Part shown: one piece after another, positions 4,414 through 44,900 of the stretch
Layout of the letters: every line of letters starts with the position of its first letter
Numbering within the stretch: position 1 is the first letter of the stretch
Origin: Cyanidioschyzon merolae
Taxonomy: Eukaryota
Direction: 5' to 3' (one strand)
Length of the DNA: 64,000 nucleotides
Assembly (NCBI GenBank): GCA_000091205.1
Contig: AP006489.2
Position numbers and translations under genes: made by a program
The notes under the pieces: generated by a model
Database searches by the model: none
Told to the model about the DNA's origin: nothing
Seen by the model: the letters and a program-made list of their open reading frames with translations, nothing else

Positions 4414-4878
4414 TACACCGCTGATGTGTACCTCTGATGGGAAGCGTCGACAGTGGAACACGGAAGGAGGACGATGCATAATCGATGCTTCTGTATTCGC
4501 TGGTACGGTGCGTATAATCGGGGATCACTTACACCGCTGATGTGTACCTCTGATGGGAAGCGTCGACAGTGGAACACGGAAGGAGGACGATGGATAATCG
4601 ATGCTTCTGTAATCGCTGGTACGGTGCGTATAACCGGGGATCACTTACACCGCTGATGTGTACCTCTGATGGGAAGCGTCGACAGTGGAACACGGAAGGA
4701 GGACAATGGATAATCGATGCTTCCGTATTCGTTGGTACGGAGCGTATAACCGGGGATCACTTACACCGCTGATGTGTACATCTGATGGGTAGCGTCGACA
4801 GTGGAACACGGAAGGAGGACGATGGATAATCGATGCTTCTGTATTCGCTGGTACGGTGCGTATAATCGGGGATCTCTG
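4414..4878. repeat. 116-bp minisatellite, about 4 tandem copies, immediately 5' of the P5CDH start
   Basis: Identical ORF starts recur at 4453, 4569 and 4801 (116 and 232 bp apart). The unit 'caccgctgatgtgtacctctgatgggaagcgtcgacagtggaacacggaaggaggac...' is read directly with few mismatches. Confidence 0.85.
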
Positions 4879-13419: not shown

Positions 13420-13790
13420 GACTCTTCGCCGCTACTTCGATTCCAAAGCGTTACGAAGTTCCGTCGCAAGTCGAGCGCCGATCTATAATCGTTACGGTGC
13501 CGTACTCCAGTGAGAGGCACACGCTGTACGCAGAGCAAGGTTCACCAACAAGGTAGCGCAGGGAGTCGTGTCCAGTGCGTTTCTCGCTCTGACTCTGTCT
13601 CTGACTTTGCCCGGCTGCTTATCCCGTGTGGACACGTCCGAACACGTGTACGTCATTTGCGCGTGGCGATGGCGGCGGTGATGGCGCGTCGTTGGCGGGC
13701 GCGTCATCCCCGCTGCTGCTCGAAGCGCTTGATGAGGCCTCTGCTCCGCTGGTACCAGGTACACGTCGTTGGTTGTATCGGGTACTGGAA

Positions 13791-14355
13791 CACCAGTGCC
13801 TACAACGACTTGTGAAGAGAACTTGTTTCCTGTGTATATTCGGCGGTACATAACACCAGTACCTACAACGACTTGTCAAGAGAAGTTGTTTCCTGTGTAT
13901 ATTCGGCGGTACATAACACCAGTACCTACAACGACTTGTCAAGGGAACTTGTTTCCTGTGTATATTCGGCGGTACATACCACCAGTACCTACAACGACTT
14001 GTCAAGAGAACTTGTTTCCTGTGTATATTCGGCGGTACATACCACCAGTACCTACAACGACTTGTCAAGAGAACTTGTTTCCTGTGTATATTCGGCGGTA
14101 CATAACACCAGTACCTACAACGACTTGTCAAGAGAACTTGTTTCCTGTGTATATTCGGCGGTACATAACACCAGTACCTACAACGACTTGTCAAGAGAAC
14201 TTGTTTCCTGTGTATATTCGGCGGTACATAACACCAGTACCTACAACGACTTGTCAAGAGAACTTGTTTCCTGTGTATATTCGGCGGTACATAACACCAG
14301 TACCTACAACGACTTGTCAAGAGAACTTGTTTCCTGTGTATATTCGGCGGTACAT
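13791..14355. repeat. 63-bp minisatellite, about 9 tandem copies, abutting the inner edge of the right inverted-repeat arm
   Basis: The unit 'caccagtacctacaacgacttgtcaagagaacttgtttcctgtgtatattcggcggtacataa' recurs with a 63-bp period (starts 13791, 13854, 13917, 13980...). A period of 21 codons explains the long repetitive ORFs on both strands (TPVPTTTCQENLFPVYIRRYI x n). Confidence 0.9.
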
Positions 14356-15635
14356 GGCTCTTGTTGGCATTGCTTGCACTGAACGGAAGCATGCTGTGCT
14401 GCACAGATGGGAATCGAATTGGACCTAAACTGGATGATGAGGTTGCTTTTCATCGCAAGTACGCAGCGTTTCAGCACAATATCTACACGGTGTACGATAC
14501 AGCAGTCTCGTATGTTTGCTAGATACAGAGGCGCTGGACGCTGCGGAAGCACGAGAAAGTTCTGGATGCTGATCGAGTCGTTCAAGTCTGTGACGAAACG
14601 CGTAATGCCTGCGCGCAAGGTTGCAGATGGAGTCACACTGTAGCGGGCCGCCAGCCTCTGCATAGCGTGCTGTGTGATGCTCAGTCGACTGCTGGGGCAT
14701 CATTTCATGGGGACAATGCTGTTTCTGGCACAGCCTGTCTAGGTATTTCAGCGTGCATCTGAGCACGTGATGCCTATATTTCGTCCTAAAGGCGTCGACA
14801 GGCACTGTAGGCAGTCGGATCATTTACGAGCGCGCTATGCGCCCGCCGAAGGGGCATCAGTACAGCCTTTATACGCTGCCGCATGTGCAGTGTCATAGGC
14901 TGGGGCGCAAACAATCGCGGCTATCGGGTCAGTGCCAGTTTCAACTCATCTAAGAACACAACGGATGCCTGCTTCTTGTCCGCGTGCAACCGATATTGCT
15001 GGCGGCACTAGCGTCATCTCATGGACGCTTGCCAAAGACCGGGCACAGGAGCCGTGTGTGGACGCTCACATACGCTTGACAGGAAACGCTCTGTTCTGGA
15101 TCAAGTGGAAGCGCAGGGTACAACGAAGAAAGTCATTCCGTTGCGACCTTCCTTTGTGTGCCATGTTCATCCGTACGATCGTATGCCAAGCGCCATGATG
15201 CGTTTGGACGCTCTGAAGCGATTCTCGCTTTCGTTGCGATATCGCTTCCGCCATAACCAGCTCGTCATTTGTCTCCAACGACACAGTGAGAATTCCTTCC
15301 GCCGTTTCCTGCTATGATCGACGAGCGAGGTTACGGTATAATGCCCGTATCGTTTGCCGCATGAAGCGCTCGGTATCGACCCGCATCTTGTTGCCGAGCC
15401 CTAATGGATCCTCTGTGACAACCTGCACGGTGGATGTTCTAAACGCCGATGTGGTGCGGTAACGTGTCAAGGTATTCTGGGAAGCGCATGTGTGCACTGT
15501 TAATTCTACGATCATCCGTTGTGATGTCGCATAAAGGGTTTGATCGAAAACTTCCGGAAGCATGTGAACAGCTGGCAACGAAACGAGCGGAAACCCTGCG
15601 AATGTCTTCGTAACGAGGTACGTCAAATCGAAATA
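14340..15635. repeat. Right arm of the large inverted repeat (partner 665-1965)
   Basis: See left arm. Mirror-image ORFs have coordinates summing to 16291. Identity stays high for about 1.3 kb with a few substitutions (e.g. SHHPV vs PHHPV). Confidence 0.85.
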
Positions 15636-22619: not shown

Positions 22620-22870
22620 AAAGCGATATTGTGTAACCACCGCAAGGAAGCCGCCCTTGTTAAACGCAATGCGATGCTGAATACGACTGTCGATTTCGCG
22701 ATCAAGCCAATATTGTGTAACCACCGCTAGGAAGCCGACCCTGTTAAAAGCGATACCACACAGAATATGACTGTCGATTTCGCGATCAGGCCAATATTGT
22801 GTAACCACCGCAAGGAAGCCGACCCTGTTAAAAGCGATACCACACAGAATACGACTGTCGATTTCGCGAT
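22620..22870. repeat. 84-bp tandem repeat, 3 copies
   Basis: The unit 'atattgtgtaaccaccgcaaggaagccgaccctgttaaaagcgataccacacagaatacgactgtcgatttcgcgatcaggcca' starts at about 22626, 22710 and 22794. It produces the internally repetitive 22491..22997(-) ORF. Confidence 0.85.
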
Positions 22871-23365
22871 CATGCCATTCGTAGTGCCATGCTCGGACTC
22901 TAGTGTGTAGCACTGTACTGCGCAAGGATCGGGGTGATCTCTTCCATATATCTACACATGACATCGTATGAAGCTGGTGCTTGTTCCGACGCACCACATC
23001 TACATGGATATATAAACAAGGACGGCGTCATGTTTTCCGAGGTCGAGTGCGCTCGGTGAAAGAGGAGAGCATGTTCCCTTCAGGTTCCACACTGATTGAC
23101 ATCTGTGTCTCCCACATGCATACGCCAGTATTTGAAAATCTAGAGAGCGCACCAGTATCGTGCCAGGATGGTGTGTGCCTCTGAAACGGCGAAAGCCGCG
23201 CAGTGCCATGCAGCTGGCAGTACCATCTGGACACTGCGGACACAGGTGGCCGCGCACCGTCTTTTCCCGAGAGCGCATCCCATGATGCGCCACGGACGCG
23301 GGAAATCGCAGGTCGTGTCACGGAAACAGCAGATTCCGTGACGCCGGCGATGAACAGCGCATGCG

Positions 23366-26300
23366 CGCATCACGTATCTAGGCCGCAGCGCGCGACGTGG
23401 TGCGCGGCAGATGTGTATGTATGTGTCATTATTTCCCTGAAGCAGGACGCTGCACCCGCGATGCGCTTCTAACGACGCATCTGATTTTATTGAGACGATG
23501 CGGTAAACACGATATCGGTTAGCACTCGTGTGCCTGCACCGGACCTCTTGGACGGTGAGAATCTCGGGAACTGGTTATCCCGAAGAAATCGAAGCCAGCC
23601 GCGTCGACGAAGCGTTGCCGGAGGAGCTCGGGCGACATAGTCGTATTCGTCCTGTCACCGAAAATCACACGTATAACAGCTTGATAATCTAGAGCACGAC
23701 ACTGATTGGGTGTGTCGATGTGGCGTAAACGGTTGCTCAGCTCAGGCACGTCGGGCCGATACTGCCGACCAAGACACCTGAGCGATCTGGTGTCCCGCGC
23801 AAGCTGGTGCCGGACGCACGCAACATTCGGAGAGAGTCGGCAGTTCCCTTTCGGTGCTGAGTTTGCGTCTGCGACCACTCGATTAGTATACGAAACGCAC
23901 ACCTGCCGTTTACAACCATTGTAGAGCTTGCCGTTCCGGACTTGTGCCCGAACCTTCATGTTTCCTGATGGCGCACTATCTATGCTGTAGTTCGCCTGCA
24001 TTCAAAGAATTCAGCTTTCCATGGAGCCTCCTTTGCGTTTTCAGTATGCGCAAATGCTCCCTGTGTTCTGAATGTACACGATGATGCCAATCTCGTCCGT
24101 GCTCTCGCCGTTGATAGACCAGCGGTTGCCAACTATACGCCATGCAATAGTTCCCACGAAGCAGTCTGCATTTATCTCCGCCACTGCTGCATCATCGACT
24201 TGGTAGAGATATCCATCGGAGTTGGCCTGAAACGGTTCATCGGTAACAGTAACATCATTGATAATGCAGCATTCACCGAAGCATAACGTGTTTCCCTCGA
24301 AGTAATCACCGTTAACCATGCGAACCGTGATGTACGACGGGCAAGATTCGCTGTTGACACTGTAGTCATTTTCGAGGTCACTGGTGTACCACTGAGCTTC
24401 ATAGAGACCGTCCTCGCAACTGGAATAGAAATACGAGCCACTATCGCACAGGTTACTTGGGCTGCAGGAGGAACAGTCCGTTTGAATACTGTTCTCTATC
24501 GTGCCGGTATCTGTATAGCACTCATAATAACAAGTCTGCCCCGAAACGGGTTCCTGCATAAAAGACAAGACAAACACGAGCGTCAAAAACACGAAAAGAG
24601 CACGCTTGCAAGACATAAGGTTGGCGCTTTCGAGCAGAGTCTATAGCTTTTACTTCAACAACAAGCGACGCAGTTACGTACTATGTGACTGTCACGCTGC
24701 GCGACACGCACACCGAGATGCAGCCGTGTCACGCTGCGCGACACGCACACCGAGATGCAGCCGCGTCACGCCACCTGTGCATGGTGCACACGGATGCGCT
24801 CACAACGCCCCCAACGGATAGGAGATCTCCCAACGACGTGCGTTGTATGAGAGCCGCCGCCGCCGCCGCCGAGCTTCACACGAGCGCATGACGTATCTGC
24901 GCGTCGTGTTCGCGCTTTGCGTATCTGGGCGCTGTCGTTGCGCTCGCGAGCGGCGGCGTCGTTTACTGGCGGGCAGCGCTGGTGTATTCGCGGTACGCGG
25001 TGCTGTATGTTGTACGCGAGCGCTGAGGAATCGGAAAGGTGGTATAAGTGTACCGAGTGGTCTGGGTGGCCATTGGGCACGCTCAGGGCGTCGTTGTTGA
25101 CAGCAGGGATCCTGTTTCGCTGCTCGGTAGAGCTAAGAACGACTCAAACAGAAGGAGTTCGCATAGCGACCGAGGGCGGAAACGGCAAACTTTGAACCTA
25201 TTCTAGCTGCTATCGATAGCAGGCTTTGCGGACTTTCTCGGAGACTGTTTCCTTTTCCGCTCTTTTTTTTCTGCAAGTTTGACTGGGCTTGTTTCTCGTG
25301 TCTATCTTGCACTGTTGCTGTGAGCTGTTGAAGGATGTACACAACAGCGGTATAGCTCCGACCTCGCTGCCTCTGGTTGCTTTTCACGCTTCTCATATGC
25401 AGTATTTCGTTGCAACCTACGCTCCTGTTGCCTTTTTCATGAACTTTGGTGGCAGGAACGATGCGCCTTTTGCAGCGGTGTCACCTGGCAATGCTCGGAT
25501 GTTGCAGCAGGTCTGGTGCACCTGCTGCAGCGCGGGCTCGCCCTGCAGCCCACGAAGGCTTGTCGCACCGCTCGGTACATGCCCGTGCGGGCCAGGGAAG
25601 GGTCGCGCGATGGTCTCCCCAGTTTCCACACCGGGTGCCGTATCCTACGTTCACGGGCTACTGCATGGCGACTGTATTGGCAAGTAGGCCGTCGGCCGGA
25701 GAATCAAGCGGAGGCTGTTCCATTCTGTCGAAGATTTGCGGGACGAAACTTCGTCTATGGTGAAACCAGCACCGGGAAGGAACCCCAGGCTGAAGCACAA
25801 ATCGAGATATTTCGATCCGTATGCGCTCGCCTGGGGCAGTTCGGTGGAGCGTTTCCACAGGGAGCTGTGGTAGCCACGAGACGAACTCGTATCCAAGATC
25901 TTTTTTTTACGCGCAAACAGAAGAGACCCGAGTCTCCGGGAGCATATCCGTGCGAAATATGATGATGCTACTGTTGCGTGCCGTTTTGCAAACCGCCACA
26001 GAGAGACGCACACCTTTCGAACAGATAGAATTACTAGCCGTGACAGGTTCAATGAACTTTTATGTTTGAGCTTGTGGAGAAATCGAGAAAGGACGGCGCC
26101 CAGTTTATCCATGGTCATTGCAACAGAAGGCATTGTTGCGCCTTCGCAATACCTTGGCCCAGGGAGTTTGGAAACATGAACCATGCGTGATATGCGCACG
26201 CTGCTTCGGAGGAAAGGAGACAAGCCGAGGCTCCTGCGTATCCACTGGACCATGAAATAGAGTCTTTTGAAAGGCCTCGTATAAGAGCATCCCGAATCAT

Positions 26301-26611
26301 GAAGAATCCGATGGTGTACCAAATTCTAGCGGCAAGGCGTTGAATAAACCACTTCGAACATTCGACCCAGAATCCTAAAACTACGAATACGTCGGAACGT
26401 TCGTACTGGCGCACTTTGAGTCTCAAGTCTGCGGGTCAAAAAACAGTCCGAGAACCTCGAAGACCAGGAACAAAAGCGCGCAGTTATGTGGTTCTTTTCA
26501 GTCTGCCATGAGTCGAGGGCGAGCGACTGAGCGCGAACGCTCAAGGCAGTACCGCCCCAAAGTCGTATTCTTCCTCGCTATACGCGGAATCTCTGGGGCG
26601 TAGTGAGCCGA
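23366..26611. repeat. Copy A of a ~3.2 kb direct segmental duplication (copy B at 30849-34077)
   Basis: Offsets between paired ORFs are constant at 7482 bp, then 7475 bp: 23519..24001 vs 31001..31483 (160 aa, 3 differences); 25289..25687 vs 32764..33162; 25651..26322 vs 33126..33797 (223 aa, identical). The junctions can be read directly ('gcgcatcacgtatctaggccgcagcgcgcg...' at both starts; divergence after '...tctggggcgt' at both ends). Confidence 0.9.
24041..24616 (-). CDS. Secreted cysteine-rich protein (signal peptide plus about 162-aa mature region with 10 Cys), paralog A
   Basis: 191 aa. The N-terminal MSCKRALFVFLTLVFVLSFMQEPVSG is a clear signal peptide. Cys spacing is conserved with the paralog at 31523..32095. 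No known domain was recognised. Confidence 0.6.
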   Translation of the reverse strand: MSCKRALFVFLTLVFVLSFMQEPVSGQTCYYECYTDTGTIENSIQTDCSSCSPSNLCDSGSYFYSSCEDGLYEAQWYTSDLENDYSVNSESCPSYITVRMVNGDYFEGNTLCFGECCIINDVTVTDEPFQANSDGYLYQVDDAAVAEINADCFVGTIAWRIVGNRWSINGESTDEIGIIVYIQNTGSICAY

Positions 26612-29600
26612 AAAAATACAGAAAAAACAAAACAAACTAGTTGCAAAATATTGATTAAAGAACACCTATCTTATGGACCTACACACCACGGCCGCCTAAG
26701 AGGTTCCAATTTTCCTGGAGAAGCTCTGAAAGTGGGTTAACACGGGGTGCTTGGACGACGGCGATAGAAGACCACGACAGGAACCTTGACCGCAACGAAC
26801 GGAGAGGCGGAGGCAGTAGCATCACAAAGTATTGACGAAAATGCTGAGCAGACATTCGCACCTCCCGAAACAACGCTGCAGGTGCGGGCACATATTCTGG
26901 ATCCATCCTCGAACTCGGACTCAGGATTACCTCCTACCATGGGTACCTACCTCGACTTTGGAAACAGTCTCGGCGGATACTTTGGAAGACGGCTGGCGGC
27001 ATGTTCACGGTCGAAACTGGAGTAAGCGACTTGCCCGCGTATGTGTTTGGGGAGCGGATACGTAGCTGCTGAAAGGGTGTTTTGCAGACTGTTCCCAATG
27101 GTTGCGGGTAGCTTCACGCGTCCGGCAAGATAAAGTTTGCATTCGAATCGACCAAGACTAATGTACTTCTGTTGCTAACTTCGCGCTGTGCCAAGCACTC
27201 AATGGACGACTGGAATGCAGGAAGCGCTGGTGGCGTGTGCGTTCACACACCCCGTGGAGCGTGCGTCTAAATCGACGACGTATCTCTGGAGCACCGCAGC
27301 GCCATTCCTATTTCCTTATGCGCTATGACTCGATAGGTTTCGCATCATGGAATATTTGTGAGATAGCCCCGATACTAGACGACGAGAAGTCGAATTACCA
27401 GTACAGTAATGAGGAACTGATACAAATCGAGGACTCTACCTTAGCGATAGAGACCCAACGAGATACGGAGAAGGAGGTACAGAGCCATCATGATCCAACC
27501 AGAAGCAAAATAACCAGAGAAAGTAGCTCAGGACAGAGCCCGAAGAAGAAGACCAGCAAGAGAAAACAAGAGAATAGAAAGAAGAACTCCGAAACGAGCC
27601 CATCACAAGTCATCCCCGGAAAGAACACCCCAGCCGGAACTCAAGAAAGCTGTCAAAAAACTCAGTCACCTACTCACAACGCGGTAGATCCGAAAAGCCG
27701 TGCATGCAAATCATTAGACCAACCGGGACGGCTGGCACCAGAACGTAAAAGTTGCAATCCGCAGTACCTGAAACGACGTACCAATACCCAGATTGATGAA
27801 TGCCACCGACTCTATCAGATCGTCAACCGCACCGCCTTACGCGCCAACGCCGGAGACAAGGAAGCGAAGGCAGTCCTAACGGCGCTACAGGCGCAACGTG
27901 AAGAAGCTATCAAAAGAAAGAAGAAACTTTCCAGAGAAGACAAACGAGAGGATCGAAGCCGCAAAATCGCCTCCCTGGCGAAATCTATGCTGGAGAGCAC
28001 CACCGAAGATGAGACTTGGCGCTCCATTCGATCGAGACTGGAGCCACCAAAAAAGTGCTTGGGGCTCACACCAATCGTTGATAAGGAAGAGCTGAGGACG
28101 GAGGGTGCCTCAGTGAATGAGGCCTGGACAGACCACGGGACAGAGCTGCATGAAGACGCAACTGGGCACTGCCAAGACCCAATCTATCGGCACCAATATG
28201 CCGCAGAAGTACCGCGCATCGAACCGGTACTTGGAATGGAACGACCCAATCTTCTGGCCTGAAATCGCTGAGACACTCTTAAGCTCATGCAACCGCAAAA
28301 CACCTGGCATCGACGGTATCGCTGCCGAGTGGGTGAAACTGGCGACACCAGAAGGCGAGACAACAGGGACACCATGGATACCAGATGAACCTGACACAAG
28401 CTTAGGCAAACGCTTTCTGGAGCTCATCCAACGCATGTTTGAAGAGGCATACATCCCTGATGTATGGGGGACTGCCGAGGTCGTACCGGTCCTCAAAAAA
28501 GACTCCCACACAGACATGAACAGCTACCGGCCTATTCGCCTCATCCCGTCAATCATGAAGCTACTTTGCGCCATCCTCACGAACCGTATCCACAGCGGCC
28601 TCCAGGAGCGCAAGTTCTTCGCCCCAGAACAGGCTGGATTCCGGAGCCGCGAGGAGTGCATGAGCCATGCCCTGACCTTCATTGAAGTGGTGCAACGTCG
28701 CTTCACTAGCGACCAACAACCAACTTACGTATGCTTCATCGACTTCCAAAAGGCCTCGGACACGGTCCCGCACGAGGCTCTATTTCTGAAGATGGAACGT
28801 GCCGGAGTCTCCGAAAAGTGCTTAGCGTTCTTCCGTGCGCTCTATGTAGACTCATGGATGCGCATCCGACTGGGCGACGGCTCAAGAACCCCTTCGATAA
28901 GAATGCGCCGTGGACTGCGACAGGGCGATCCCGCATTCCCGCTCCTTTTCAACATCTTCATCAACGACCTGCTGAACAACTGCAGACAATACGTGCTTGA
29001 GGTGCCGTGGATAGACTGGGGAGATGCCCGATGAGGAGCCCTCATGTAGGAACCGCCTCGCAGGCCTTCTATTTGCGGACGATGTCGTGCTGTTGGTACC
29101 CGCCCCGGAAACGCTTGCGGGTAGCATGGAACAAGTCAGCGACTGGGCCGATCGCTGGGAGATAAGCATAGGAGCATCGAAGTGCGGCGTCATGGTCATT
29201 CATGGAGACTCGCAGAGCATTCGCAATCGCTCGTGGCGGTTGCAGAATCAGGAAATTCCGATCGTGGAAAAATATCGCTACCTGGGGGGTCTGTCGCACA
29301 TCGACGCTCGACGAAAAGGCACACGTCGACGAGATGATCGCCAAGATGCATAGACGTACAGCGATCGCACGCCCATTCTTATCCGACCCCTCTACCTGCA
29401 TAGCAATCCGTACCAGCGCACTAAGGATGTGTATCATCCAGCCTGCGACCTGGGGTGCTGAATGGTGCGGCATGAAGCACCCAAATGCCTCGCGTCTGCA
29501 GGCAGCCGCCAACAGGGCAATGCGACTCGTTGTTGTTGGGTGCTCAGTACAGAGCAGAGCAACCACCGCGCTGGCACTCGGACTTGAACTCCAAATACCC

Positions 29601-30848
29601 TCGACAGAGGCGATAGCAGCAGGCTGCCGGGCATGTATACGGGCGAAGGGCTCCACTATGCGCACCTCTTTGAGTCGGATTTTCATGCAGACCCCAACGC
29701 ACCGCAAGAACTCTTGGATGAAATCGACGCAGATTTGGCTGAAGCGCCTCTTGGGCGAAAACACGCTCCCCAATCTTTCCCCCAGGGATATAGAAGGCTC
29801 CCGCCGCCTCAAGCGAACGGTCCAAACACCAATATGGGATCGTAGACACGGAACAAGTCGCGCCGGTAACGCCGGCTTTACTCTATACCGGAACTACACC
29901 CTAGCATACACATGCAAGTACTGGCGGGAGGCGCTGGAATTCCCGGGACTTGCTCGAGGTACCCAGTGGCTCGCCAAAATGCGCGTTGGTGGCTTCTGGC
30001 TAGCAGCACCGGCTCTAAGCCGTATAGGAACACTGGAATCGCACTGGGAATCACACTGTCCCTGCTGTGGAAACGAGACCCCCGAGACGCTGACACATTT
30101 AGGCCTACAGTGGCCGCGCTGGAAACAGGAGCGCAGCGAGCTCCTTGAAGGACAGCAGCAGCTGGGCATCACCGTGATAGACGAAGGTCGGACACTCACT
30201 CTGAGTGTAGCACTGGCAATTGATGGTCCGCTAACCGAGCCTCAGCGCTCATTAGTGGCCAAAAAACTCACATGCTACCTTGTAGGTAAAAGGTCCAGCG
30301 AATCGGATGCGCATACGGGCGCAGTGCGCTTTCTGCGCCTACCTTCTGTGGTGGGTGTCAAGCACAAACCCGCATTGCCAACCAAGAACGCATTCCGTGC
30401 ATGATCACGAGGAAGAGAGGCGGCTCCCAGAATTCATCCTAACAGCCAAGTTTCTCCAGCGTGTCGTGTAGCGAAGGCAGGCCTGCATCCGCAGACTGCC
30501 CGAGCGCAAACTGACGACGAGACCCGATTCTACGTCGGGTGAACCACGCCTCGAGCCGACGCCCTCTGAGGTATAGGAAAGCTGTTCTAGCTCTATGAAC
30601 TATCTGCTCCAGCGGTTCAGGTGCCAAGGCGGATACGGAACGGCAGGCACTCGGAACACACGATAGGACATATGAGGCGACAAGAATATCCGAGATGAAA
30701 CATGGGTAATGTAATTTGAGAGTATGGTGTTGATGGACACCTCTCCTCGCACTGAAAAAAAAACACACAAAACAAGTAAGAAAAGAAAAATGCGCATAAT
30801 CGGGGAACGCTGGCCTAAGAAAACGTTTTATCAATGAAAAAAAAATGC
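26612..30848 (+). mobile_element. Degenerate non-LTR (L1-like) retrotransposon lying between the two duplication copies. It has an ORF1-like basic region, an RT broken by frameshifts, a zf-RVT zinc knuckle and a 3' A-rich tail
   Basis: RT motifs appear across three frames: KTPGIDGI and FRSREECM...QGDPAFPLLFNIFINDL in 28117..29034; the F/YxDD box 'LLFADDVVLL' in 29024..29353; and 'HCPCCGNETPETLTHLGLQCPRW' (zf-RVT, C..C...ET..H....C...W) in 29202..30404. No endonuclease domain was recognised (a 5'-truncated copy, or an upstream K/E-rich ORF). The A-rich tail (aaaaaaaaatgcgcat, 30760-30848) abuts copy B directly. Confidence 0.8.
28117..30404 (+). pseudogene. LINE reverse transcriptase ORF2 remnant (frameshifted between 28117..29034, 29024..29353 and 29202..30404)
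   Basis: See the mobile_element entry. The three overlapping ORFs in frames 0, 1 and 2 together rebuild a colinear RT plus zf-RVT. Confidence 0.75.
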
Positions 30849-33800
30849 GCATCACGTATCTAGGCCGCAGCGCGCGATGTGGTGCGCGGCAGATGTGTAT
30901 GTATGTGTCATTATTTCCCTGAAGCAGGACGCTGCACCCGCGATGCGCTTCTAACGACGCATCTGATTTTATTGAGACGATGCGGTAAACACGATATCGG
31001 TTAGCACTCGTGTGCCTGCACCGGACCTCTTGGACGGTGAGAATCTCGGGAACTGGTTATCCCGAAGAAATCGAAGCCAGCCGCGTCGACGAAGCGTTGC
31101 CGGATGAGCTCGGGCGACATAGTCGTATTCGTCCTGTCACCGAAAATCACACGTATAACAGCTTGATAATCTAGAGCACGACACTGATTGGGTGTGTCGA
31201 TGTGGCGTAAACGGTTGCTCAGCTCAGGCACGTCGGGCCGAGACTGCCGACCAAGACACCTGAGCGGTCTGGTGTCCCGCGCAAGCTGGTGCCGGACGCA
31301 CGCAACATTCGGAGAGAGTCGGCAGTTCCCTTTCGGTGCTGAGTTTGCGTCAGCGACCACTCGATTAGTATACGAAACGCACACCTGCCGTTTACAACCA
31401 TTGTAGAGCTTGCCGTTCCGGACTTGTGCCCGAACCTTCATGTTTCCTGATGGCGCACTATCTATGCTGTAGTTCGCCTGCATTCAAAGAACTCAGCTTT
31501 CCATGGAGCCTCCCTTGCGTTTTCAGTATGCGCAAATGCTTCCCGTGTGCGGAATGTACACGATGACGCCAAATGCGTCCGTGCTCTCGCCGTTGATAGA
31601 CCAGTTTCTGGCATTTGCAGCCCATGCAATAGTTCCCACGAAGCAGTCTGCATTTATCTTCGCCACACCTGCATAATCGACTTTGTACAGATGCCCATCG
31701 GATTTGGCCCGATACGGTTCATACTTAACAGCAACATCATTGGCACTGCAGCATTCGTCGAAGCATATCGTGTTGGCCTCGAGGTAATGATAGTTAACCA
31801 AGCGAAACGTAATGTAGGACGGGCAAGGAACGCTCTTGACACTGTAGTCTACATCCAGAAAACTGGTGTACCACTGAGCGTCAAAAGTGCCGTCCTTGCA
31901 ATTGGAAAAGAAGCTCAAGTCTCTGCAGAGGTGACTTGGACTGCAGGAGGAACAGTCCGTATGAATAGTTTTCTCAATCGTGCGGTTTTCTGTATAGCAC
32001 AGATAGGAACAAGTCTGCCCCGAAACGGGTTCCTGCATAAAAGACAAGACAAACACGAGCGTCAAAAACACGAAAAGAGCACGCTTGCAAGACATAAGGT
32101 TGGCGCTTTCGAGCAGAGCCTATAGCTTTTACTTCAACAACAAGCGACGCAGTTACGTACTATGTGACTGTCACGCTGCGCGACACGCACACCGAGATGC
32201 AGCCGTGTCACGCTGCGCGACACGCACACCGAGATGCAGCCGTGTCACGCCACCTGTGCATGGTGCACACGGATGCGCTCACAACGCCCCCAACGGATAG
32301 GAGATCTCCCAACGACGTGCGTTGTATGAGAGCCGCCGCCGCCGCCGAGCTTCACACGAGCGCATGACGTATCTGCGCGTCGTGTTCGCGCTTTGCGTAT
32401 CTGGGCGCTGTCGTTGCGCTCGCGAGCGGCGGCGTCGTTTACTGGCGGGCAGCGTTGCTGTATTCGCGGTACGCGGTGCTGTATGTTGTACGCGAGCGCT
32501 GAGGAATCGGAAAGGTGGTATAAGTGTACCGAGTGGTCTGGGTGGCCATTGGGCACGCTCAGGGCGTCGTTGTTGACAGCAGGGATCCTGTTTCGCTGCT
32601 CGGTAGAGCCAAGAACGACTCAAACAGAAGGAGTTCGCATAGCGACCGAGGGCGGAAACGGCAAACTTTGAACCTGTTCTCGCTGCTATCGATAGCAGGC
32701 TTTGCGGACTTTCTCGGAGACTGTTTCCTTTTCCGCTCTTTTTTTCTGCAAGTTTGACTGGGCTTGTTTCTCGTGTCTATCTTGCACTGTTGCTGTGAGC
32801 TGTTGAAGGATGTACTCAACAGCGGTATAGCTCCGACCTCGCTGCCTCTGGTTGCTTTTCACGCTTCTCATATGCAGTATTTCGTTGCAACCTACGCTCC
32901 TGTTGCCTTTTTCATGAACTTTGGTGGCAGGAACGATGCGCCTTTTGCAGCGGTGTCACCTGGCAATGCTCGGATGTTGCAGCAGGTCTGGTGCACCTGC
33001 TGCAGCGCGGGCTCGCCCTGCAGCCCACGAAGGCTTGTCGCACCGCTCGGTACATGCCCGTGCGGGCCAGGGAAGGGTCGCGCGATGGTCTCCCCAGTTT
33101 CCACACCGGGTGCCGTATCCTACGTTCACGGGCTACTGCATGGCGACTGTATTGGCAAGTAGGCCGTCGGCCGGAGAATCAAGCGGAGGCTGTTCCATTC
33201 TGTCGAAGATTTGCGGGACGAAACTTCGTCTATGGTGAAACCAGCACCGGGAAGGAACCCCAGGCTGAAGCACAAATCGAGATATTTCGATCCGTATGCG
33301 CTCGCCTGGGGCAGTTCGGTGGAGCGTTTCCACAGGGAGCTGTGGTAGCCACGAGACGAACTCGTATCCAAGATCTTTTTTTTACGCGCAAACAGAAGAG
33401 ACCCGAGTCTCCGGGAGCATATCCGTGCGAAATATGATGATGCTACTGTTGCGTGCCGTTTTGCAAACCGCCACAGAGAGACGCACACCTTTCGAACAGA
33501 TAGAATTACTAGCCGTGACAGGTTCAATGAACTTTTATGTTTGAGCTTGTGGAGAAATCGAGAAAGGACGGCGCCCAGTTTATCCATGGTCATTGCAACA
33601 GAAGGCATTGTTGCGCCTTCGCAATACCTTGGCCCAGGGAGTTTGGAAACATGAACCATGCGTGATATGCGCACGCTGCTTCGGAGGAAAGGAGACAAGC
33701 CGAGGCTCCTGCGTATCCACTGGACCATGAAATAGAGTCTTTTGAAAGGCCTCGTATAAGAGCATCCCGAATCATGAAGAATCCGATGGTGTACCAAATT

Positions 33801-34077
33801 CTAGCGGCAAGGCGTTGAATAAACCACTTCGAACATTCGACCCAGAATCCTAAAACTACGAATACGTCGGAACGTTCGTACTGGCGGACTTTTAGTCTCA
33901 AGTCTGCAGGTCAAAAAACAGTCCGAGAACCTCGAAGACCAGGAACAAAAGCGCGCAGTTATGTGGTTCTTTTCAGTCTGCCATGAGTCGAGGGCGAGCG
34001 ACTGAGCGCGCGCGCTCATAGCAGTACCCCCCAGCACCATATCCTTCCTTGCTATACGCGGCATCTTTGGGGCGTGT
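30849..34077. repeat. Copy B of the ~3.2 kb direct segmental duplication
   Basis: See copy A. Confidence 0.9.
31523..32095 (-). CDS. Secreted cysteine-rich protein, paralog B. The signal peptide is identical and the mature region is about 60% identical to paralog A
   Basis: 190 aa. The first 29 aa and the last ~30 aa match paralog A; the middle is heavily substituted with all Cys retained. Confidence 0.6.
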   Translation of the reverse strand: MSCKRALFVFLTLVFVLSFMQEPVSGQTCSYLCYTENRTIEKTIHTDCSSCSPSHLCRDLSFFSNCKDGTFDAQWYTSFLDVDYSVKSVPCPSYITFRLVNYHYLEANTICFDECCSANDVAVKYEPYRAKSDGHLYKVDYAGVAKINADCFVGTIAWAANARNWSINGESTDAFGVIVYIPHTGSICAY

Positions 34078-35417
34078 CTGCGCAAACAATCATGTAGACG
34101 AGCGCCCCGCCAGGACACTCGTTCAGGGCGCTGCCTCTACCACCGTGCACATCCTGTGCGAGTCCGACAAACGCACGCCGTCTCACTACGGAGCAAACCT
34201 AACCACCCACACACTCATTCGCTCTGGTATCCACGCACCGATTGTCGATAGCATGGTCATCGAGCGCCCCGCGAACATGCGTCAGGACGCCCGGACATCC
34301 TTGCACGGAGCCGGTAACCTTCTTGCCAGACTCGCGTCTCACCAGTGCTCGGAATCGCTCCAGAGAAACACCAGAGGCAACATAACCGTAATGTGTGCCA
34401 GATTATGCGATGAAGCTGCTGTCGATACCAGTATTCTGGCAGCGGTGATTCTTGCGCTGATTTCATACGACGGACGTGCTCCCATTGCCACGTTCGCCGT
34501 GTCATGATGTTATCAGTTACCGAGCAGGTAGTTGCGCACTCATTCAACTCAGCTAGCGTCCCGATGCCCTGCAAAACACGAGTCACGTTGCTTATCGTCT
34601 GTCGATCGAGCAAGTTGGAGACACGAGTGAGGCTCGTCCTATGCGCATGGATGCGGTATTCGAAGCAAGCTGCACCTTTTGATGTTTTACGCGATGCATC
34701 ATGGTGTGCTTTGTTCTCACGGCGACACAGGAATCAAGTTGACCAACAGGCGTTGCCATCGCAAGGCTCAGCAAGACGCAAACATATGGTCGCTCTCGCA
34801 AGTACAGCTCGCGTGCGGGTTGCTGTCTTCGTCTAGCGATACTTGTGCCGGGTAAGCGGGAGTGTGCCAGTCGTGCATGTGCAACGACAGCAAAGAAAGC
34901 GTTGAAGATCAGCGCGACACGTTGGCTGTTGATACCAACGCTCTCGCGTGCCCGTTGTTCGACGTGCACCGCCTAAGCAAGGCGTACCTTGGGCACACAC
35001 ACGTAGCTCGACACCGCGCACATTGAAGGACCAGTTTGTCGCCAGCTCGAGCCCAGTACCTAGAACGCGCTTCTTGTGCAACGTATCACAGAGCTAGTTC
35101 TCCGGCAGCGCAACGTGCTAGTAGCCAGTCACGTGCAAAATTCCCAGCTACAAAACTGGCTCCGCGCGTTGACGACAAGCTCCAAGCGCCCAGGCAGAGT
35201 CGCTTTGGCTCCCAGCTTGGCGCCCGTTGCTCCAGCACCGCACTTGACCGAACAAGGTCTTCACGCGCTACGCTCACTTCTGTGTACCGGTCACGATTGC
35301 CGCGCGTACTTGGTGACTCCAGGTACAGCGTTTCTCGTGCAACGCCCACAACTTGCGGCAAGTGAAGCTTCGTTATGAGACAGTCGCGAACGACAACCGT
35401 CAAATGATGCACCAATA

Positions 35418-35538
35418 ACAGCACAAGCAGTAGCACAAGCAGCAGCACAAGCAGCAGCACAAGCAGCAGCACAAGCAGCAGCACAAGCAGCAGCACGAGC
35501 AGCAGCACAAGCAGCAGCACAAGCAGCAGCACAAGCAG
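35418..35538. repeat. (CAGCAGCACAAG)n 12-bp microsatellite, about 10 copies, just upstream of the TRAF-ZnF gene
   Basis: Read directly: cagcacaagcagcagcacaagcag... It produces spurious poly-Leu and poly-Cys ORFs on the minus strand. Confidence 0.9.
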
Positions 35539-35642
35539 AGATATTGCTGGTGACACAAGAAGCAGCACCGGCGATTGTCCCCGAGATTGCTAGCAGCGTA
35601 TTGCGTGGCAACCTGGCGCTCGCCTTCGGTGTCGGGTGAGCT

Positions 35643-36329
35643 TTGACTGAATACCAACCTCCTTGGCTCGTTCTCGTATGGCTCATGTCCCTTACTGCAG
35701 CAGAGAATAGTGGTGCTCGAGTTGTTGATACCGAGCCGAATGAGGTTGAGGCTCGTCGTTGCCAGGTCTGTGGGCACCAGGTGCCGCTCTCTAACTGGAC
35801 ACTTCACGAAGTTCGCTGCGCCCGTGGTGCCTGTACCTGTGAGCACTGCGGCTCCCGGATGCACGAATCAGAACTGGACGCACACTGGAAGACCGAGTGT
35901 CCCTGCACCTTAGTGGATTGCGTGTACTGTGAGCTACCGGTCAAGAGGAGCGACATGGAAGGCCACGTGCGCCGCTGTGGCGCACGTACCGAACGCTGTA
36001 AGGCCTGCGGCGACTACATTCGTTTAATTGATCGGCTTGAGCACGAGTTGTATATCTGCTCGGCGTCAAGAGCGCATAACGGTGAAAGCGATGCGTCGCA
36101 CCCTGCGAAGGAGTCTGTCCACGCGTGCGCAGCCTCGCTCCCGGAGAGCGCCCCGGACACGGTGACTTCGACAACCCCAGCCAGGCGACCGCAGACAGCG
36201 CGAGGGCGCTCGGGAGTACCCTCCAGAAAGCTCTCCGCAAGCAAACCTTGGCTGCTAACCATGGGAGCAATTCTCGCCGTTGTCGTTTTGCAGGGTCTCC
36301 GGAGCCGTGAGCGACGCCCCGCTCCATAG
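35643..36329 (+). CDS. TRAF-type zinc-finger protein with a C-terminal transmembrane (tail) anchor
   Basis: Cys/His spacing is typical of TRAF-type zinc fingers: CQVCGHQVPLSNWTLHEVRC..CEHCGSRMHESELDAHWKTEC.....CVYCELPVKRSDMEGHVRRC....CKACGDYIRLIDRLEHELYIC. The C-terminus is hydrophobic (KPWLLTMGAILAVVVLQGL). Confidence 0.6.
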   Translation: MTEYQPPWLVLVWLMSLTAAENSGARVVDTEPNEVEARRCQVCGHQVPLSNWTLHEVRCARGACTCEHCGSRMHESELDAHWKTECPCTLVDCVYCELPVKRSDMEGHVRRCGARTERCKACGDYIRLIDRLEHELYICSASRAHNGESDASHPAKESVHACAASLPESAPDTVTSTTPARRPQTARGRSGVPSRKLSASKPWLLTMGAILAVVVLQGLRSRERRPAP

Positions 36330-41984: not shown

Positions 41985-44900
41985 CCACCACTCTGTCTAT
42001 GTGTATATGCCCGCTAGAGCCTGCAATGAAGAGCCAGGTTTAAGTTCCTCAGGTATCCCACGGCTTATCTGAGAACCATTCTGCATGCAGCGTACTTCTG
42101 AGTCCTCAGCTGCGTCACCAGCTGTGTAGCGCAGCACTTGGTGGATGCTCGTGCTGACGGCAGACGCAGGCCCCCCTGCGGACACCCGGGGATTCGTTGC
42201 GATCGACTCATCGGGGACATACCCCGAGCGGGTGGATGGGCGCTCTCCAGCTGGGTAGTTATCCACCCTGAGGTGCGTTTCATGAAATGCTTTTACGTGG
42301 CCTATAGCAGATGCTTGTGAAGTGGGTTCGTTGGAAGAAATAAAAATGTATGGGAAAGGTATGGATGTGGAAGCTGGCGGACTAGAGAGTCGTCATCGCT
42401 GGCTACCGACAAACTCAAAGCGAACAATCCTCTTCTCATTGAGCATCGAGCGAGGAGGAGCGAGTGACGAATAAAAGCAGAAGAGGGGAAATAGTCGAGA
42501 TATCGTGTTTAACCGATGGGAGTATGATGAGACTTTAGGGGTAGAGCGGGCACGAGTTCCAGTTATTCATGCATCGGTGCTAGCGAAAATACACACATGG
42601 AGTTCTTGAATCGATACTTGAACGCCGCCTTCAATATCATACGATGTGCGGCGCTGAAGACGAGAACCGAGGAGCTGACGCGAGCCAATTTTGTGGGGAA
42701 GCCTCTCAGGCTCGAAGCGTGCAGGGAAAATCTGAAACAGACAGCAGTGGGCAAGTCAAAAATTGCTTGGAGCGTGTCTTTGAGTCCATACATATAAATG
42801 TACATACGTAGGTATCCTCCATGGTAGCAAAGCTCTTTCTATTCCACTGATCACGTACATACAGAGGGCGGGGAGTCGAAGGTTCTGCATGTTGCCTCCT
42901 TGAGACGCTGCCGATTCGACATACTTGGTGCTTCGTTGGGATGCGTCCATTTTAGGTAAAGATTTTTTTTTTGATCTGTAGCAGAGCGGCAAACGAGTCT
43001 TTTCAGATACTGCGAGATGCACGAGTGCAGCTGCGAATGAGACCAGACGCCGTAAGTTTTGCAAGCGTGTTCAATGCTGAATACTGCCATGCAACATCGA
43101 TGAATCGCCCAGCACGTGGCGACGCTGGATCGAGTCCCTACATAGCATAGAGTAGCTAGTCTGGATAAAGGAGCTTGGGATGGTGCGCGAATGCGTTCCC
43201 GTCGTTGACCTTGCAGCCTGTAGCGCCCGCATACATGGCGCGAGCCCAGAATATTTATCAAGTCAAATGCGCCGTGGTTCGTTGGTCTTTCGTCGTCAGT
43301 TCGAGGTGCCCTGGATGCCCTTTGGAGAACGAATTTTCTGAAGTTCGCTTCTTCCTGGCTGTCTGGCTGGGTGCACCAGGGCCATTGTGCGACAGGTTCG
43401 TGGCAAACAACACGTCAACAGATGCGTGCGTCTTGTAGGGATGGTGCCGTCGCATCCAGGCCTCCCGCCGGGGCGCTGAGCAAACTTCACGCGACTCCAG
43501 CACGGCTTCGCCATCCAGCCGGCTCCGTCAATCACGTGGCGGACGCTGGGCTCCAGCACAGCGAAGCTGGATCACGTCCCGTACGTTTCGGGAGTCGCCA
43601 GCAGCCCCCGATCATTGAACTGGGAAACATTCACAAATAAAATACCTCCTTGTCGTTGATGCCAAGACGCGCTGGATTTCCCCAGGCTACCTGATGGCCT
43701 TCTCAACTGTGCTCGGTATCTGGTATCGAGCGCCCACAAACATGGGCAGTCGCACCAGCGACTCAACTCCACATCCAGTCACGCGAAGCCTGTCACTGCG
43801 AGATCCCCGATCAACGCCCTGTATAGCCAGCCCCGGGCACCGTGCCCCGACTTGCACCAGCGCGTCCATCTGTTGTCCATAGTGAGTCCAGCGAGCGATC
43901 AACCACGCAAATCGGCGACTCGAGAACGGACACGTAGCAGCGATCGCACCGTGCGACTCCAGGTGCTGCGTACGCATGCCCGCCGCCACAGCACGGATGA
44001 CGGCGAGTTTTTTTTCATGGACAAAACGTTTACCTAGCCAGCGTTCTCCGATTATGCACATTTCTCTTTCCTTTTGGTTTTTTTTCAGTGCACGGTGAGG
44101 TATCCATCAAGCCCCTACTCCCATGTTACATGACCTGCACTTCATCTCGAATATTCTGGTCGTATCATAAGTCCTATCGTGTGTGCCTAGTGCCTGCCGA
44201 AAGCGACAGCAATGGCGCCTGTAGCGCCGGGGCGGTCGCAGCACGGAGACAGAACGGCGTTGCCGTACCACAAAGGGCGTCGGCTCGAGGGGATACCGGC
44301 GAGTACGCACGCATTTGCGGCCGGTGGTGCGAGTCGTTGCGAGCCGCTTCCGCCGCCATCGGATACAGCAGCGCAGGCGTCCGTTTTGTTTTCTGATCCT
44401 GCAGCATCGATGTATCCGAGAGACTGGGCGTATGCAGCGGAAACGCGCATACCACTATCAGCTCGAACAGAGACAGCAATTCGCCTGCACGGATACGCCT
44501 TAGATTCCACCAGGTCCAGTCTACTGTCTCCCGCGAACGCACCCAGTGAATACTGCGAGCCTCTAGACTCGGGGCCTGCAGCGGGCGCTCTCGCTGTGGC
44601 GCCGTGTGCGCATCGAGCGTGCCATGGCGGCTTCTGTGCGCCGCTGCGGGCGTTCGCCCTGCAAGGCGGCGCACTGTCCAACTGAATGGCGCGTCGCTGC
44701 TCGGCTCGCTGGCTCCTGTGTGGGGCTCTGTTCCGCAACGGCTTTGTACTCTGTGGGTGCAGTTGAGACGGCGTACTCTCGGGGAGCGGGTTGCTCACTG
44801 GTACGCAGGACCAATTGAGGTGCAAGATAAATCATTTCAAGCTCTCACAGTTACTGTTACGCTGATTCTACACAGCATCTGTGACATAATTTGGTACTGT

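Follow-up and report, generated by a model that had tools for sequence, protein, structure and literature searches.

A tandem duplication in Cyanidioschyzon merolae with near-identical flanks and a diverged secreted-protein core: probable old origin, flank conversion and a LINE spacer

How can two tandem copies of a 3.2-kb unit be almost identical over most of their length, non-coding DNA included, and yet differ at one position in five across the mature part of the secreted protein that each is predicted to encode? The question arises in a window of 64,000 nucleotides of Cyanidioschyzon merolae contig AP006489.2 (GenBank assembly GCA_000091205.1), which is the whole stretch of DNA that was analysed and to which all positions refer. 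The ORF at 2372-4270 equals BAM79695.1 of strain 10D, which assigns the window to that strain. The two units and the features within them are as follows.

23365-26601, minus strand: duplicated unit, copy A (self-BLAST, sliding identity and boundary alignment)
30847-34075, minus strand: duplicated unit, copy B (delimited in the same way)
24041-24616, minus strand: CRP-A, CDS for a predicted secreted 191-aa protein with 12 Cys (open reading frame, orthologs, simulation and charge)
31523-32095, minus strand: CRP-B, CDS for a 190-aa paralog (open reading frame, comparison with CRP-A, and charge)
24539-24616, minus strand: signal-peptide codons 1-26 of CRP-A, with the same sequence in CRP-B (32018-32095)
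24059-24528, minus strand: divergence peak, CRP-A codons 30-186, matching 31541-32007 in copy B
26530-26601, no strand assigned: putatively unconverted non-coding edge, adjoining the LINE 5' end and matching 34005-34075 in copy B
24690-24771, no strand assigned: 37-nt tandem repeat, a possible promoter element, 75-155 nt upstream of the CRP start codon (32169-32250 in copy B)
23481-23494, minus strand: AATAAA-containing motif, a candidate polyadenylation signal within the unit, about 550 nt downstream of the CRP-A stop codon (30963-30976 in copy B)

Copy A comprises the CDS with 676 nt of flank on its 3' side and some 2 kb on its 5' side, and by self-BLAST is 96.0% identical to copy B over 3240 columns. 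The differences are concentrated: outside a 470-bp core block the units are 99.3% identical, with 18 substitutions in 2695 nt of flank (0.67%), whereas the core block itself is 80% identical, and 94 of the 130 differing columns lie at 24059-24528, within the CRP-A CDS. Sliding 100-nt identity is 97-100% except at 23990-24530 (76-86%) and in the final 70 or so nucleotides (63-88%). An earlier note had described near-identical direct duplicates of about 3.2 kb with flanks about 99% identical and a sharply localised divergence, and this description is borne out, with the second dip at the end of the unit as an addition. The same note had also pointed to 223-aa and 160-aa reading windows in the flanks; these lack a counterpart in the outgroup loci L016 and L017, and are probably chance ORFs in non-coding DNA.

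The CRP gene call appears to be real, because an open frame with all 12 Cys would survive 97 random substitutions with a probability of only 2e-5 in simulation. The two predicted proteins are identical at 134 of 191 residues, residues 1-29 all being the same, as had been claimed for the signal peptide; cleavage, with the site read from the sequence by eye, is predicted before Q27, following V-x-G at the -3/-1 residues. In the mature region the Cys residues are all conserved between the copies, as had also been proposed, although they number 12 and not 10, and overall identity there is about 65% rather than about 60%. CRP-A and CRP-B are identical to the metagenome proteins P0003 and P0002 respectively; the protein collection searched held no NCBI accession for either gene, and neither a Pfam model nor a solved structure was matched. 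A structure model built from the A and B types alone was useless (pLDDT 59), and one with the outgroups added reached pLDDT 83.8; a search for fold neighbours of the latter found none.

Family searches with a word index over 5.8 G proteins and a profile HMM over 1.84 G representatives together returned the A type, the B type, two outgroup orthologs and a spurious signal-peptide match (P0021), and nothing else; a metagenome scan with the family alignment gave one locus among the matches listed. On this evidence the CRP family is restricted to Cyanidioschyzon and Cyanidiococcus. Cyanidiococcus yangmingshanensis (CCYA18G4452) and one metagenome lineage each have a single, syntenic copy. C112 and C117 have both been lost in Cyanidiococcus, from which it is predicted that these two form a pair. 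A third paralog was considered as a possible conversion donor, and neither of the two family searches found one.

The age of the duplication is indicated by its silent and non-coding sites. Four-fold degenerate sites in the core differ at 8 of 42 positions (19%) versus 0.67% in the flanks (p = 2e-9), and the non-coding edge has 13 substitutions in 72 nt (18%), again far above the flank value (p = 1e-13). The duplication thus appears to be old, at roughly 0.2 substitutions per silent site, and the principal reading of the earlier note, a young duplicate under strong diversifying selection, does not hold: the mature region has a dN/dS of 0.88, which together with the raised silent divergence is the very outcome that the note had named as refuting it. 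Its alternative, that gene conversion has homogenised everything except the core, is strengthened by the diverged edge and by the strain comparisons that follow. No unconverted block was seen at the left edge of the unit, which counts against an explanation by gene conversion.

Comparison with X, a B ortholog from another strain (contig L005), gives a core tree of ((B,X),A), with 90 sites at which B = X ≠ A versus 8 and 2 of the other patterns, whereas the same three-way comparison of the flanks is star-like (9/24/8). In a four-sequence comparison that includes a further contig, Y, the flanks contain seven concerted sites (10D-A = 10D-B ≠ X = Y) versus two positional and two other sites, a count that must be read with the knowledge that X and Y are short-read metagenome contigs, in whose flanks the two copies could have been collapsed into one consensus; the edge contains seven positional sites, copy-specific across strains, and no concerted ones. 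Both core types predate the strain split, whereas the flanks coalesce roughly when the strains diverged. All 20 contigs fall into discrete core classes but for a sole intermediate, L019, whose core begins, at its 5' end, with four A-type diagnostic sites and is otherwise B-type; this appears to show a conversion tract creeping into the core, its last A-type and first B-type sites lying about 13 nt apart, less than an assembler k-mer. These comparisons indicate concerted evolution of the flanks, with core and edge remaining copy-specific across environmental strains, and point firmly to repeated interlocus gene conversion of the flanks since the duplication.

The arrangement of some contigs calls for caution. 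In L008 and L009 an A core adjoins the LINE 3' end, and in L020 and L021 a B core stands at position A; since L020 equals L007 apart from its core, such position-swapped contigs are probably assembly chimeras, or alternatively may derive from copy-number-variant arrays. Linkage across the identical flanks is unreliable because several contigs join core types to the 'wrong' position. A transcription start 31-36 nt upstream of the ATG, where many contigs begin, was also considered and set aside, as these ends fit an assembly-graph fork 118-126 nt past the last A/B difference.

What, then, has kept the core apart? Two independent conversion limits each lie within 5 codons of an end of the mature protein, and the mature parts differ markedly in charge: K+R+H number 3 in CRP-A, which is very acidic, and 17 in CRP-B, where 16 basic residues have been gained versus 2 lost (p = 0.0013) and 10 acidic residues have been lost, such that the calculated charge at pH 1-2, as in the habitat of the alga, is +18 for CRP-B versus +4 for CRP-A. 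At 15 of the 16 sites of basic gain, neither outgroup ortholog is basic. It is plausible that selection shields the core from conversion, given how closely the block matches the mature protein and that charge has shifted in one direction; the basic gain in CRP-B suggests in particular that selection holds the two cores apart. To this extent the earlier proposal of a selected core is plausible, although the omega is 0.88.

That value, with a dN of 0.22 and a dS of 0.25 (Nei-Gojobori), is composed of an omega of 0.64 in the N-terminal half of the mature region and 1.22 in the C-terminal half, and pervasive positive selection, with a dN/dS significantly above 1, was not found for the pair. A weakly constrained protein drifting almost neutrally would equally yield 0.88. 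It could therefore be argued that the duplication is old and its flanks converted, and that the core escaped by chance or through mismatch-repair blockage alone, drifting under relaxed constraint with no selection for difference; the equal spread of core differences over the three codon positions (32/32/33) is in keeping with this, as are B-type polymorphism, which is likewise mostly nonsynonymous, and the orthologs, which evolve 3-fold faster than neighbouring genes (dN 0.355 versus 0.10-0.12). A McDonald-Kreitman-type contrast gives nothing here and is without power, because the A type has a single polymorphism and the B type, with about 13, has a nonsynonymous/synonymous ratio similar to that of the A/B divergence. 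We nevertheless consider chance escape rather unlikely, given the two independent limits near the ends of the mature protein, the retention of frame and cysteines, the strongly directional charge change, and a dN/dS of about 0.4 between orthologs, by which the family is normally constrained.

Long-lived balanced alleles would also leave a sharp divergence peak, and the two cores might have been alleles of a single-copy gene, their flanks recombined, that were both captured when a heterozygote later underwent a young LINE-associated duplication. The discreteness of the two core classes, L019 being the one exception, and the occurrence of each core type at either position in contigs would agree with such a history, which is very unlikely all the same. 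It does not lead one to expect a deeply diverged non-coding edge 2 kb from the core; the concerted flank sites demand exchange between copies in any case; LINE bridging between sister chromatids copies one allele and not two; and the position-swapped contigs, which match reference-arrangement contigs outside the core, are probably chimeric. C. merolae is handled as a haploid and has no known sexual cycle, which also counts against this explanation.

Still less probable, to the point of being hard to sustain, is a young duplication in which strong diversifying selection or local hypermutation produced the 20% divergence of the mature region before the flanks had time to change. The match between block limits and mature protein, the directional charge shift, the elevated dN/dS of the C-terminal half and the multi-nucleotide changes in 21 of 56 altered codons could be cited for it, but it is largely refuted by the divergence of four-fold silent sites, and further opposed by an edge that is equally diverged and copy-specific across strains and by core types that are older than the strain split at about which the flanks coalesce. 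Neither does the locus bear a mutational signature. Targeted hypermutation by the neighbouring reverse transcriptase, in the manner of a diversity-generating retroelement or otherwise, was rejected: neither copy has its differences restricted to adenines (the differing sites carry T31/C25/G19/A19 in copy A and G26/T25/A23/C17 in copy B), the ts/tv is 35/56, and there is neither an adenine bias nor a RIP-like transition bias.

The content of the spacer between the units is given below together with a related fragment elsewhere in the window.

26602-30846, plus strand: degenerate non-LTR (LINE) retrotransposon, filling the spacer exactly (Pfam RVT_1, ORFs, PDB matches, junctions and an A-rich plus strand)
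27237-28262: broken ORF of the LINE
28117-29034: broken ORF of the LINE, with RVT_1
29024-29353: broken ORF of the LINE, with the FADD box
29202-30404: broken ORF of the LINE, with a C-terminal CCHC-like motif
44008-44199, minus strand: 5'-truncated fragment of the same LINE family, 79% identical to 30641-30844

The element had been missed by the earlier note. Its RVT_1 match has an E-value of 1.4e-18, and the best PDB sequence matches of its reverse transcriptase are R2 and LINE-1 ORF2p (5e-17 to 1e-10), with LTR-type enzymes absent. It ends in a run of nine A at 30837-30845 that touches copy B, and the fragment at 44008-44199 shares this 3' end (...CCATGAAAAAAAA) and the A-run. No short target-site duplication was found at the element, which is flanked by the 3.2-kb units instead. 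Because the 4.2-kb spacer is a degenerate LINE with its A-tail against copy B, the arrangement appears to be a LINE-bridged tandem duplication. A search for a LINE target motif found none, which counts against bridging; no APE or RLE endonuclease family was detected in the upstream ORF at E ≤ 0.001 (Pfam), which is weak evidence because the copy is degenerate. An LTR retrotransposon that has the 3.2-kb repeats as its LTRs and carries the Cys-rich ORF in them as a passenger might be supposed from the RT-encoding segment between direct repeats and the purine-rich run ahead of the downstream one, but can be dismissed with near certainty, as the reverse transcriptase matches R2/LINE-1 type enzymes only and has a FADD box, the repeats lack TG...CA termini and no obvious tRNA-complementary primer-binding site was seen at the junction, the 5'-truncated copy has only the 3' end and A-run in common, what the supposed LTR contains is the CRP locus, ancestrally single-copy and syntenic in Cyanidiococcus, and the genome has only 26 retroelements, all of them non-LTR (PMC1955436).

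The history that we favour, and regard as probable taken as a whole, would begin with the gene order LpxB - TRAF-like zinc finger - CRP - Mpv17, in which CRP was present once and encoded a small protein with 12 Cys, predicted to be secreted and all-beta. A 3.2-kb unit comprising the CDS, some 2 kb of promoter region and 0.7 kb of 3' flank was then duplicated in tandem in the lineage of C. merolae, and exactly at the junction lies a non-LTR retrotransposon, its A-tail facing the downstream copy; LINE cDNA may have been primed at one break and then linked to a second one on the sister chromatid, an event for which this architecture would be expected. Repeated interlocus conversion has since kept promoter, 5'UTR, signal peptide and 3' flank about 99.3% identical, with the last 70 or so nucleotides at the homology border and the mature-protein block escaping, the latter most likely through selection against conversions that erased a functional difference. 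Copy B would have been remodelled from a very acidic ancestral form (16 basic residues gained, 10 acidic lost), and silent sites lying between selected sites would have diverged along with them.

Divergence peaks of this kind are expected in tandem duplicates under interlocus gene conversion (Innan, 2003; Teshima & Innan, 2008; reviewed in PMC3924837), with exon 5 of the primate red/green opsin genes and RHD/RHCE as examples (PMC3924837). As in those pairs, the CRP copies barely differ over kilobases of coding and non-coding sequence, a sharp block of high divergence, silent sites included, covers the function-determining part of the protein, and paralogs within a lineage share flank alleles that are absent from orthologs; unlike them, the peak takes in the entire mature protein (157 codons) and not just a few sites, selection is deduced from boundaries and charge shift, and the host alga is haploid and presumably clonal. 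Tandem duplications bridged by L1 have been described in human tumours, where they arise somatically (PCAWG retrotransposition study, 10.1101/179705, Fig. 7), and have the same order of duplicate, LINE with poly(A) and duplicate, with the A-tail against the downstream copy and no short target-site duplication. The CRP event differs in being inherited, old and just 3.2 kb in size, in a genome with 26 LINE copies, and in a junction at which no endonuclease motif was found, so that its mechanism is read from architecture. The pair also resembles tandem families of secreted Cys-rich effector, toxin or gamete-recognition proteins in having a signal peptide, a conserved Cys scaffold and a surface that changes rapidly, in being lineage-restricted and in its duplication in tandem.

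A more ambitious interpretation, and as a package distinctly unlikely, is that CRP-A and CRP-B form a functional two-variant system in which selection opposes homogenisation, with CRP-B highly cationic at pH 1-2, a heritable LINE-bridged origin on sister chromatids and a new disulfide-stapled beta fold. If true, an extremophile whose genome otherwise contains almost no duplicates would possess a system that might function in recognition at the cell surface or as an antagonistic protein.

These findings overturn nothing in current understanding. They do provide a clean natural case in which a haploid, supposedly clonal eukaryote combines concerted evolution with a divergence peak, and what appears to be an inherited counterpart to the LINE-bridged duplications of tumours. 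As a model alga, C. merolae is valued for having a minimal gene set free of redundancy, and the pair adds to its reference genome two apparently unannotated, evidently functional genes. They belong to a small, fast-evolving, predicted secreted family of the Cyanidiaceae without known fold relatives, and as such are candidates for studies of the extracellular biology of acidophiles.

The window comes from the nuclear genome of the red alga Cyanidioschyzon merolae, strain 10D: the ORF at 2372-4270 is identical at every residue to BAM79695.1 of that strain, and the domains encoded by its long intronless ORFs are eukaryotic and of the plastid lineage. Self-comparison returned two direct repeats of a 3.2-kb unit, each containing an ORF for a secreted cysteine-rich protein (CRP).

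23365-26601, direct repeat, duplicated unit copy A
30847-34075, direct repeat, duplicated unit copy B
24041-24616, minus strand, CRP-A ORF, 191 aa
31523-32095, minus strand, CRP-B ORF, 190 aa

In 100-nt windows the copies are 97-100% identical save at 23990-24530 (76-86%) and over the unit's final ~70 nt (63-88%), and 94 of the 130 differing columns fall within 24059-24528, codons 30-186 of the copy A ORF. These comparisons confirm, with minor numerical corrections, the duplication with localised divergence described in an earlier note. CRP-A and CRP-B are 70% identical overall; residues 1-29 are without any difference, as had been claimed, and the cysteines of the mature protein are indeed all common to both, although they number 12 and not 10. 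In the flank upstream of CRP, a CGG/CCG microsatellite (24853-24872, equivalent to 32332-32350) varies in length, copy B being 3 nt shorter and strain L005 12 nt longer than copy A.

The diverged block coding for the mature protein (the core), the near-identical remainder (the flank) and the end of the unit (the edge) differ as follows.

Divergence between copies A and B
Four-fold degenerate sites, amino acid unchanged: 8/42 differ, 19%
Flanks: 18/2695 differ, 0.67%
Edge, non-coding last 72 nt of the unit: 13/72 differ, 18%

Four-fold sites are distinct from the flanks (p = 2e-9), and edge divergence is not distinguishable from that of the core silent sites. For the mature region the Nei-Gojobori estimates are dS 0.25, dN 0.22 and omega 0.88, with differences distributed 32/32/33 over the codon positions. 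The main reading of the earlier note, a young duplicate under diversifying selection, is therefore not supported: the dN/dS check that it had set beforehand came out against it, through both this omega and the raised silent divergence. DGR-like or RIP-like targeted mutation is excluded, since the core substitution spectrum has neither adenine nor transition bias.

Gene conversion sparing the core, which the same note held in reserve, is supported by the strain comparisons. The environmental contig L005, from a strain ~1.1% diverged from 10D, has a B-type gene whose LpxB side runs securely into 8 kb of unique sequence. Core sites uniting L005 and 10D-B against 10D-A number 90 (other patterns, 8 and 2), and in the flank the three are roughly equidistant (9/24/8). 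With L021 added, a contig with its flank joined to the 5' end of the LINE between the copies, 7 sites in 2 kb of flank unite the 10D copies against both environmental sequences, 2 are positional and 2 other, and all 7 informative sites in the 72-nt edge sort by position. Site patterns of this kind show concerted evolution of the flank and old copy-specific divergence of edge and core. A further contig, L019, is A-type at diagnostic sites one to four and B-type through the rest of the core; the switch lies in a ~13-nt gap between diagnostic sites, shorter than an assembler k-mer, and so is a real conversion tract end, shifted into the core. In several contigs a core type is linked to the 'wrong' side relative to 10D (L008, L009, L020 and L021; A-type core at the LINE 3' end, B-type core at the Mpv17-side flank or LINE 5' end), one of these contigs being identical, core excepted, to one arranged as in the reference; they are either assembly chimeras across identical flanks or A-A-B / A-B-B arrays produced by unequal exchange. 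Because of these contigs, and because metagenome contigs may merge both copies across identical flanks, core-to-position linkage was excluded from the evidence.

The core would be kept different by selection acting against any conversion that removes a functional difference between A and B, silent sites nearby diverging alongside. The diverged block starts and stops within 5 codons of where the mature protein does, and two independent conversion limits would hardly match it so closely by chance. CRP-A has no Lys, no His and 3 Arg, and its calculated charge at pH 7 is -23; P0020, the ortholog from a metagenome lineage, is acidic like A (-19), and the Cyanidiococcus protein is at about -9. In copy B basic residues show 16 gains and 2 losses (p = 0.0013), and acidic residues 2 gains and 10 losses. 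At pH 2 the calculated charges are +18 for B and +4 for A. Of the 16 sites of basic gain, 15 are ones where both outgroup orthologs are without a basic residue. Outgroup-polarised changes at informative sites number 13 in B and 7 in A, and among contigs B-type sequences are variable and A-type nearly invariant. The main rival is relaxed drift on a cysteine scaffold, which would likewise give an omega near 0.9. Selection against erasing conversions is the basis of the 'peak of divergence' model, in which adjacent silent sites diverge as well (PMC3924837), and the divergent core is consistent with that model without proving it.

The 4.2 kb spacer (26602-30846) is a LINE, which the earlier note overlooked. 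Its plus strand is A-rich, with broken ORFs that encode a reverse transcriptase (Pfam RVT_1), a FADD box and a C-terminal Cys/His motif; the solved structures nearest to the reverse transcriptase by sequence are R2 and LINE-1 ORF2p only. The 3' end reads CAATG followed by nine A, abutting the first bases of copy B, and the same ending is found on a partial copy of this element elsewhere in the window.

44199-44008, 5'-truncated LINE fragment, ~190 nt

Twenty-six retroelements have been reported in the C. merolae genome, every one non-LTR, with LTR elements absent (PMC1955436). The LINE fills the junction exactly, giving a duplicate - LINE(A)n - duplicate layout, with no short target-site duplication at the spacer LINE. 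Unequal exchange between two flanking LINEs is argued against by the absence of LINE remnants beyond the two units in the self-comparison, and a LINE landing by chance exactly on an already existing junction is very unlikely. The architecture points instead to coupling of LINE and duplication, and is like that of L1-bridged tandem duplications in tumours, which have been explained by joining of the cDNA to a second break on the sister chromatid (10.1101/179705).

The CRP gene is real, restricted to its lineage and fast-evolving. When 97 random substitutions with the observed spectrum were placed on the 492-nt mature region, the frame stayed open in 2.3% of simulated trials, 12/12 Cys codons were kept in 0.05%, and both held in 0.002%. 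A search of 5.8 billion proteins matched solely A and B types, all from hot-spring metagenomes and none with an NCBI accession; the CRP genes therefore appear to be missing from the annotated reference proteome. One distant relative, P0020, was added by a profile search of 1.84 billion representatives, and as query it led to CCYA18G4452 of Cyanidiococcus yangmingshanensis. Each outgroup has one copy of the gene, with the same neighbours (LpxB - TRAF-like - CRP - Mpv17), and the two products are ~31% identical to A/B, the neighbouring genes being at 65-70%. Between the outgroups, CRP has dN 0.355 and omega ~0.4; dN is 0.10-0.12 for Mpv17 and LpxB. C112 and C117 are jointly absent from the Cyanidiococcus protein, which suggests that they form a disulfide pair.

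The orthologous locus of Cyanidiococcus yangmingshanensis has its own independent direct duplication of ~2 kb (JANCYV010000018.1, contig L016, 7029-8937 / 11930-13968, ~97% identity), comprising a TRAF-like zinc-finger gene and the LpxB 5' end on either side of the single CRP gene; the locus seems prone to duplication in both genera. In contig L001 (~1170-1289; window ~23481) the genomic match ends ~10 bases past an AATAAA motif and gives way to an A-rich stretch and then unrelated sequence. One possible reading is a metatranscriptome assembly in which a polyadenylated transcript became fused to a second one; that would speak for expression. The tail of L010, an environmental A-type contig, has a deletion in the 3' flank immediately upstream of this motif (window ~23495-23640), roughly 100 nt by eye.

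Elsewhere in the window, a gap-free inverted repeat of 1299 bp (656-1954 / 14337-15635, 98.9% identity) encloses ~12.4 kb with four genes (P5C dehydrogenase, mannosyltransferase, Plus-3 protein and PP2C). The repeat holds no convincing ORF and may be a further product of recent conversion or duplication, or else a substrate for inversion. Of the ORFs at 58490-60676 and 56369-57322, one encodes Kelch repeats and a C-terminal Hint (hedgehog/intein-type) module and its neighbour two Trefoil domains. Tandem repeats are also present.

4414-4874, period 116 nt
13789-14355, period 63 nt
22626-22877, period 84 nt, between Mpv17 and copy A
35385-35576, period 12 nt, coding for (AQAA)n, shortly upstream of the TRAF-like gene at 35685-36326

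The CRP pair is a good, well-resolved case of a known evolutionary pattern. What is new is local: a gene pair apparently absent from the annotation of the reference genome, a LINE-bridged duplication that is inherited and lies in a genome nearly free of LINEs, and what is predicted to be an orphan secreted protein fold.
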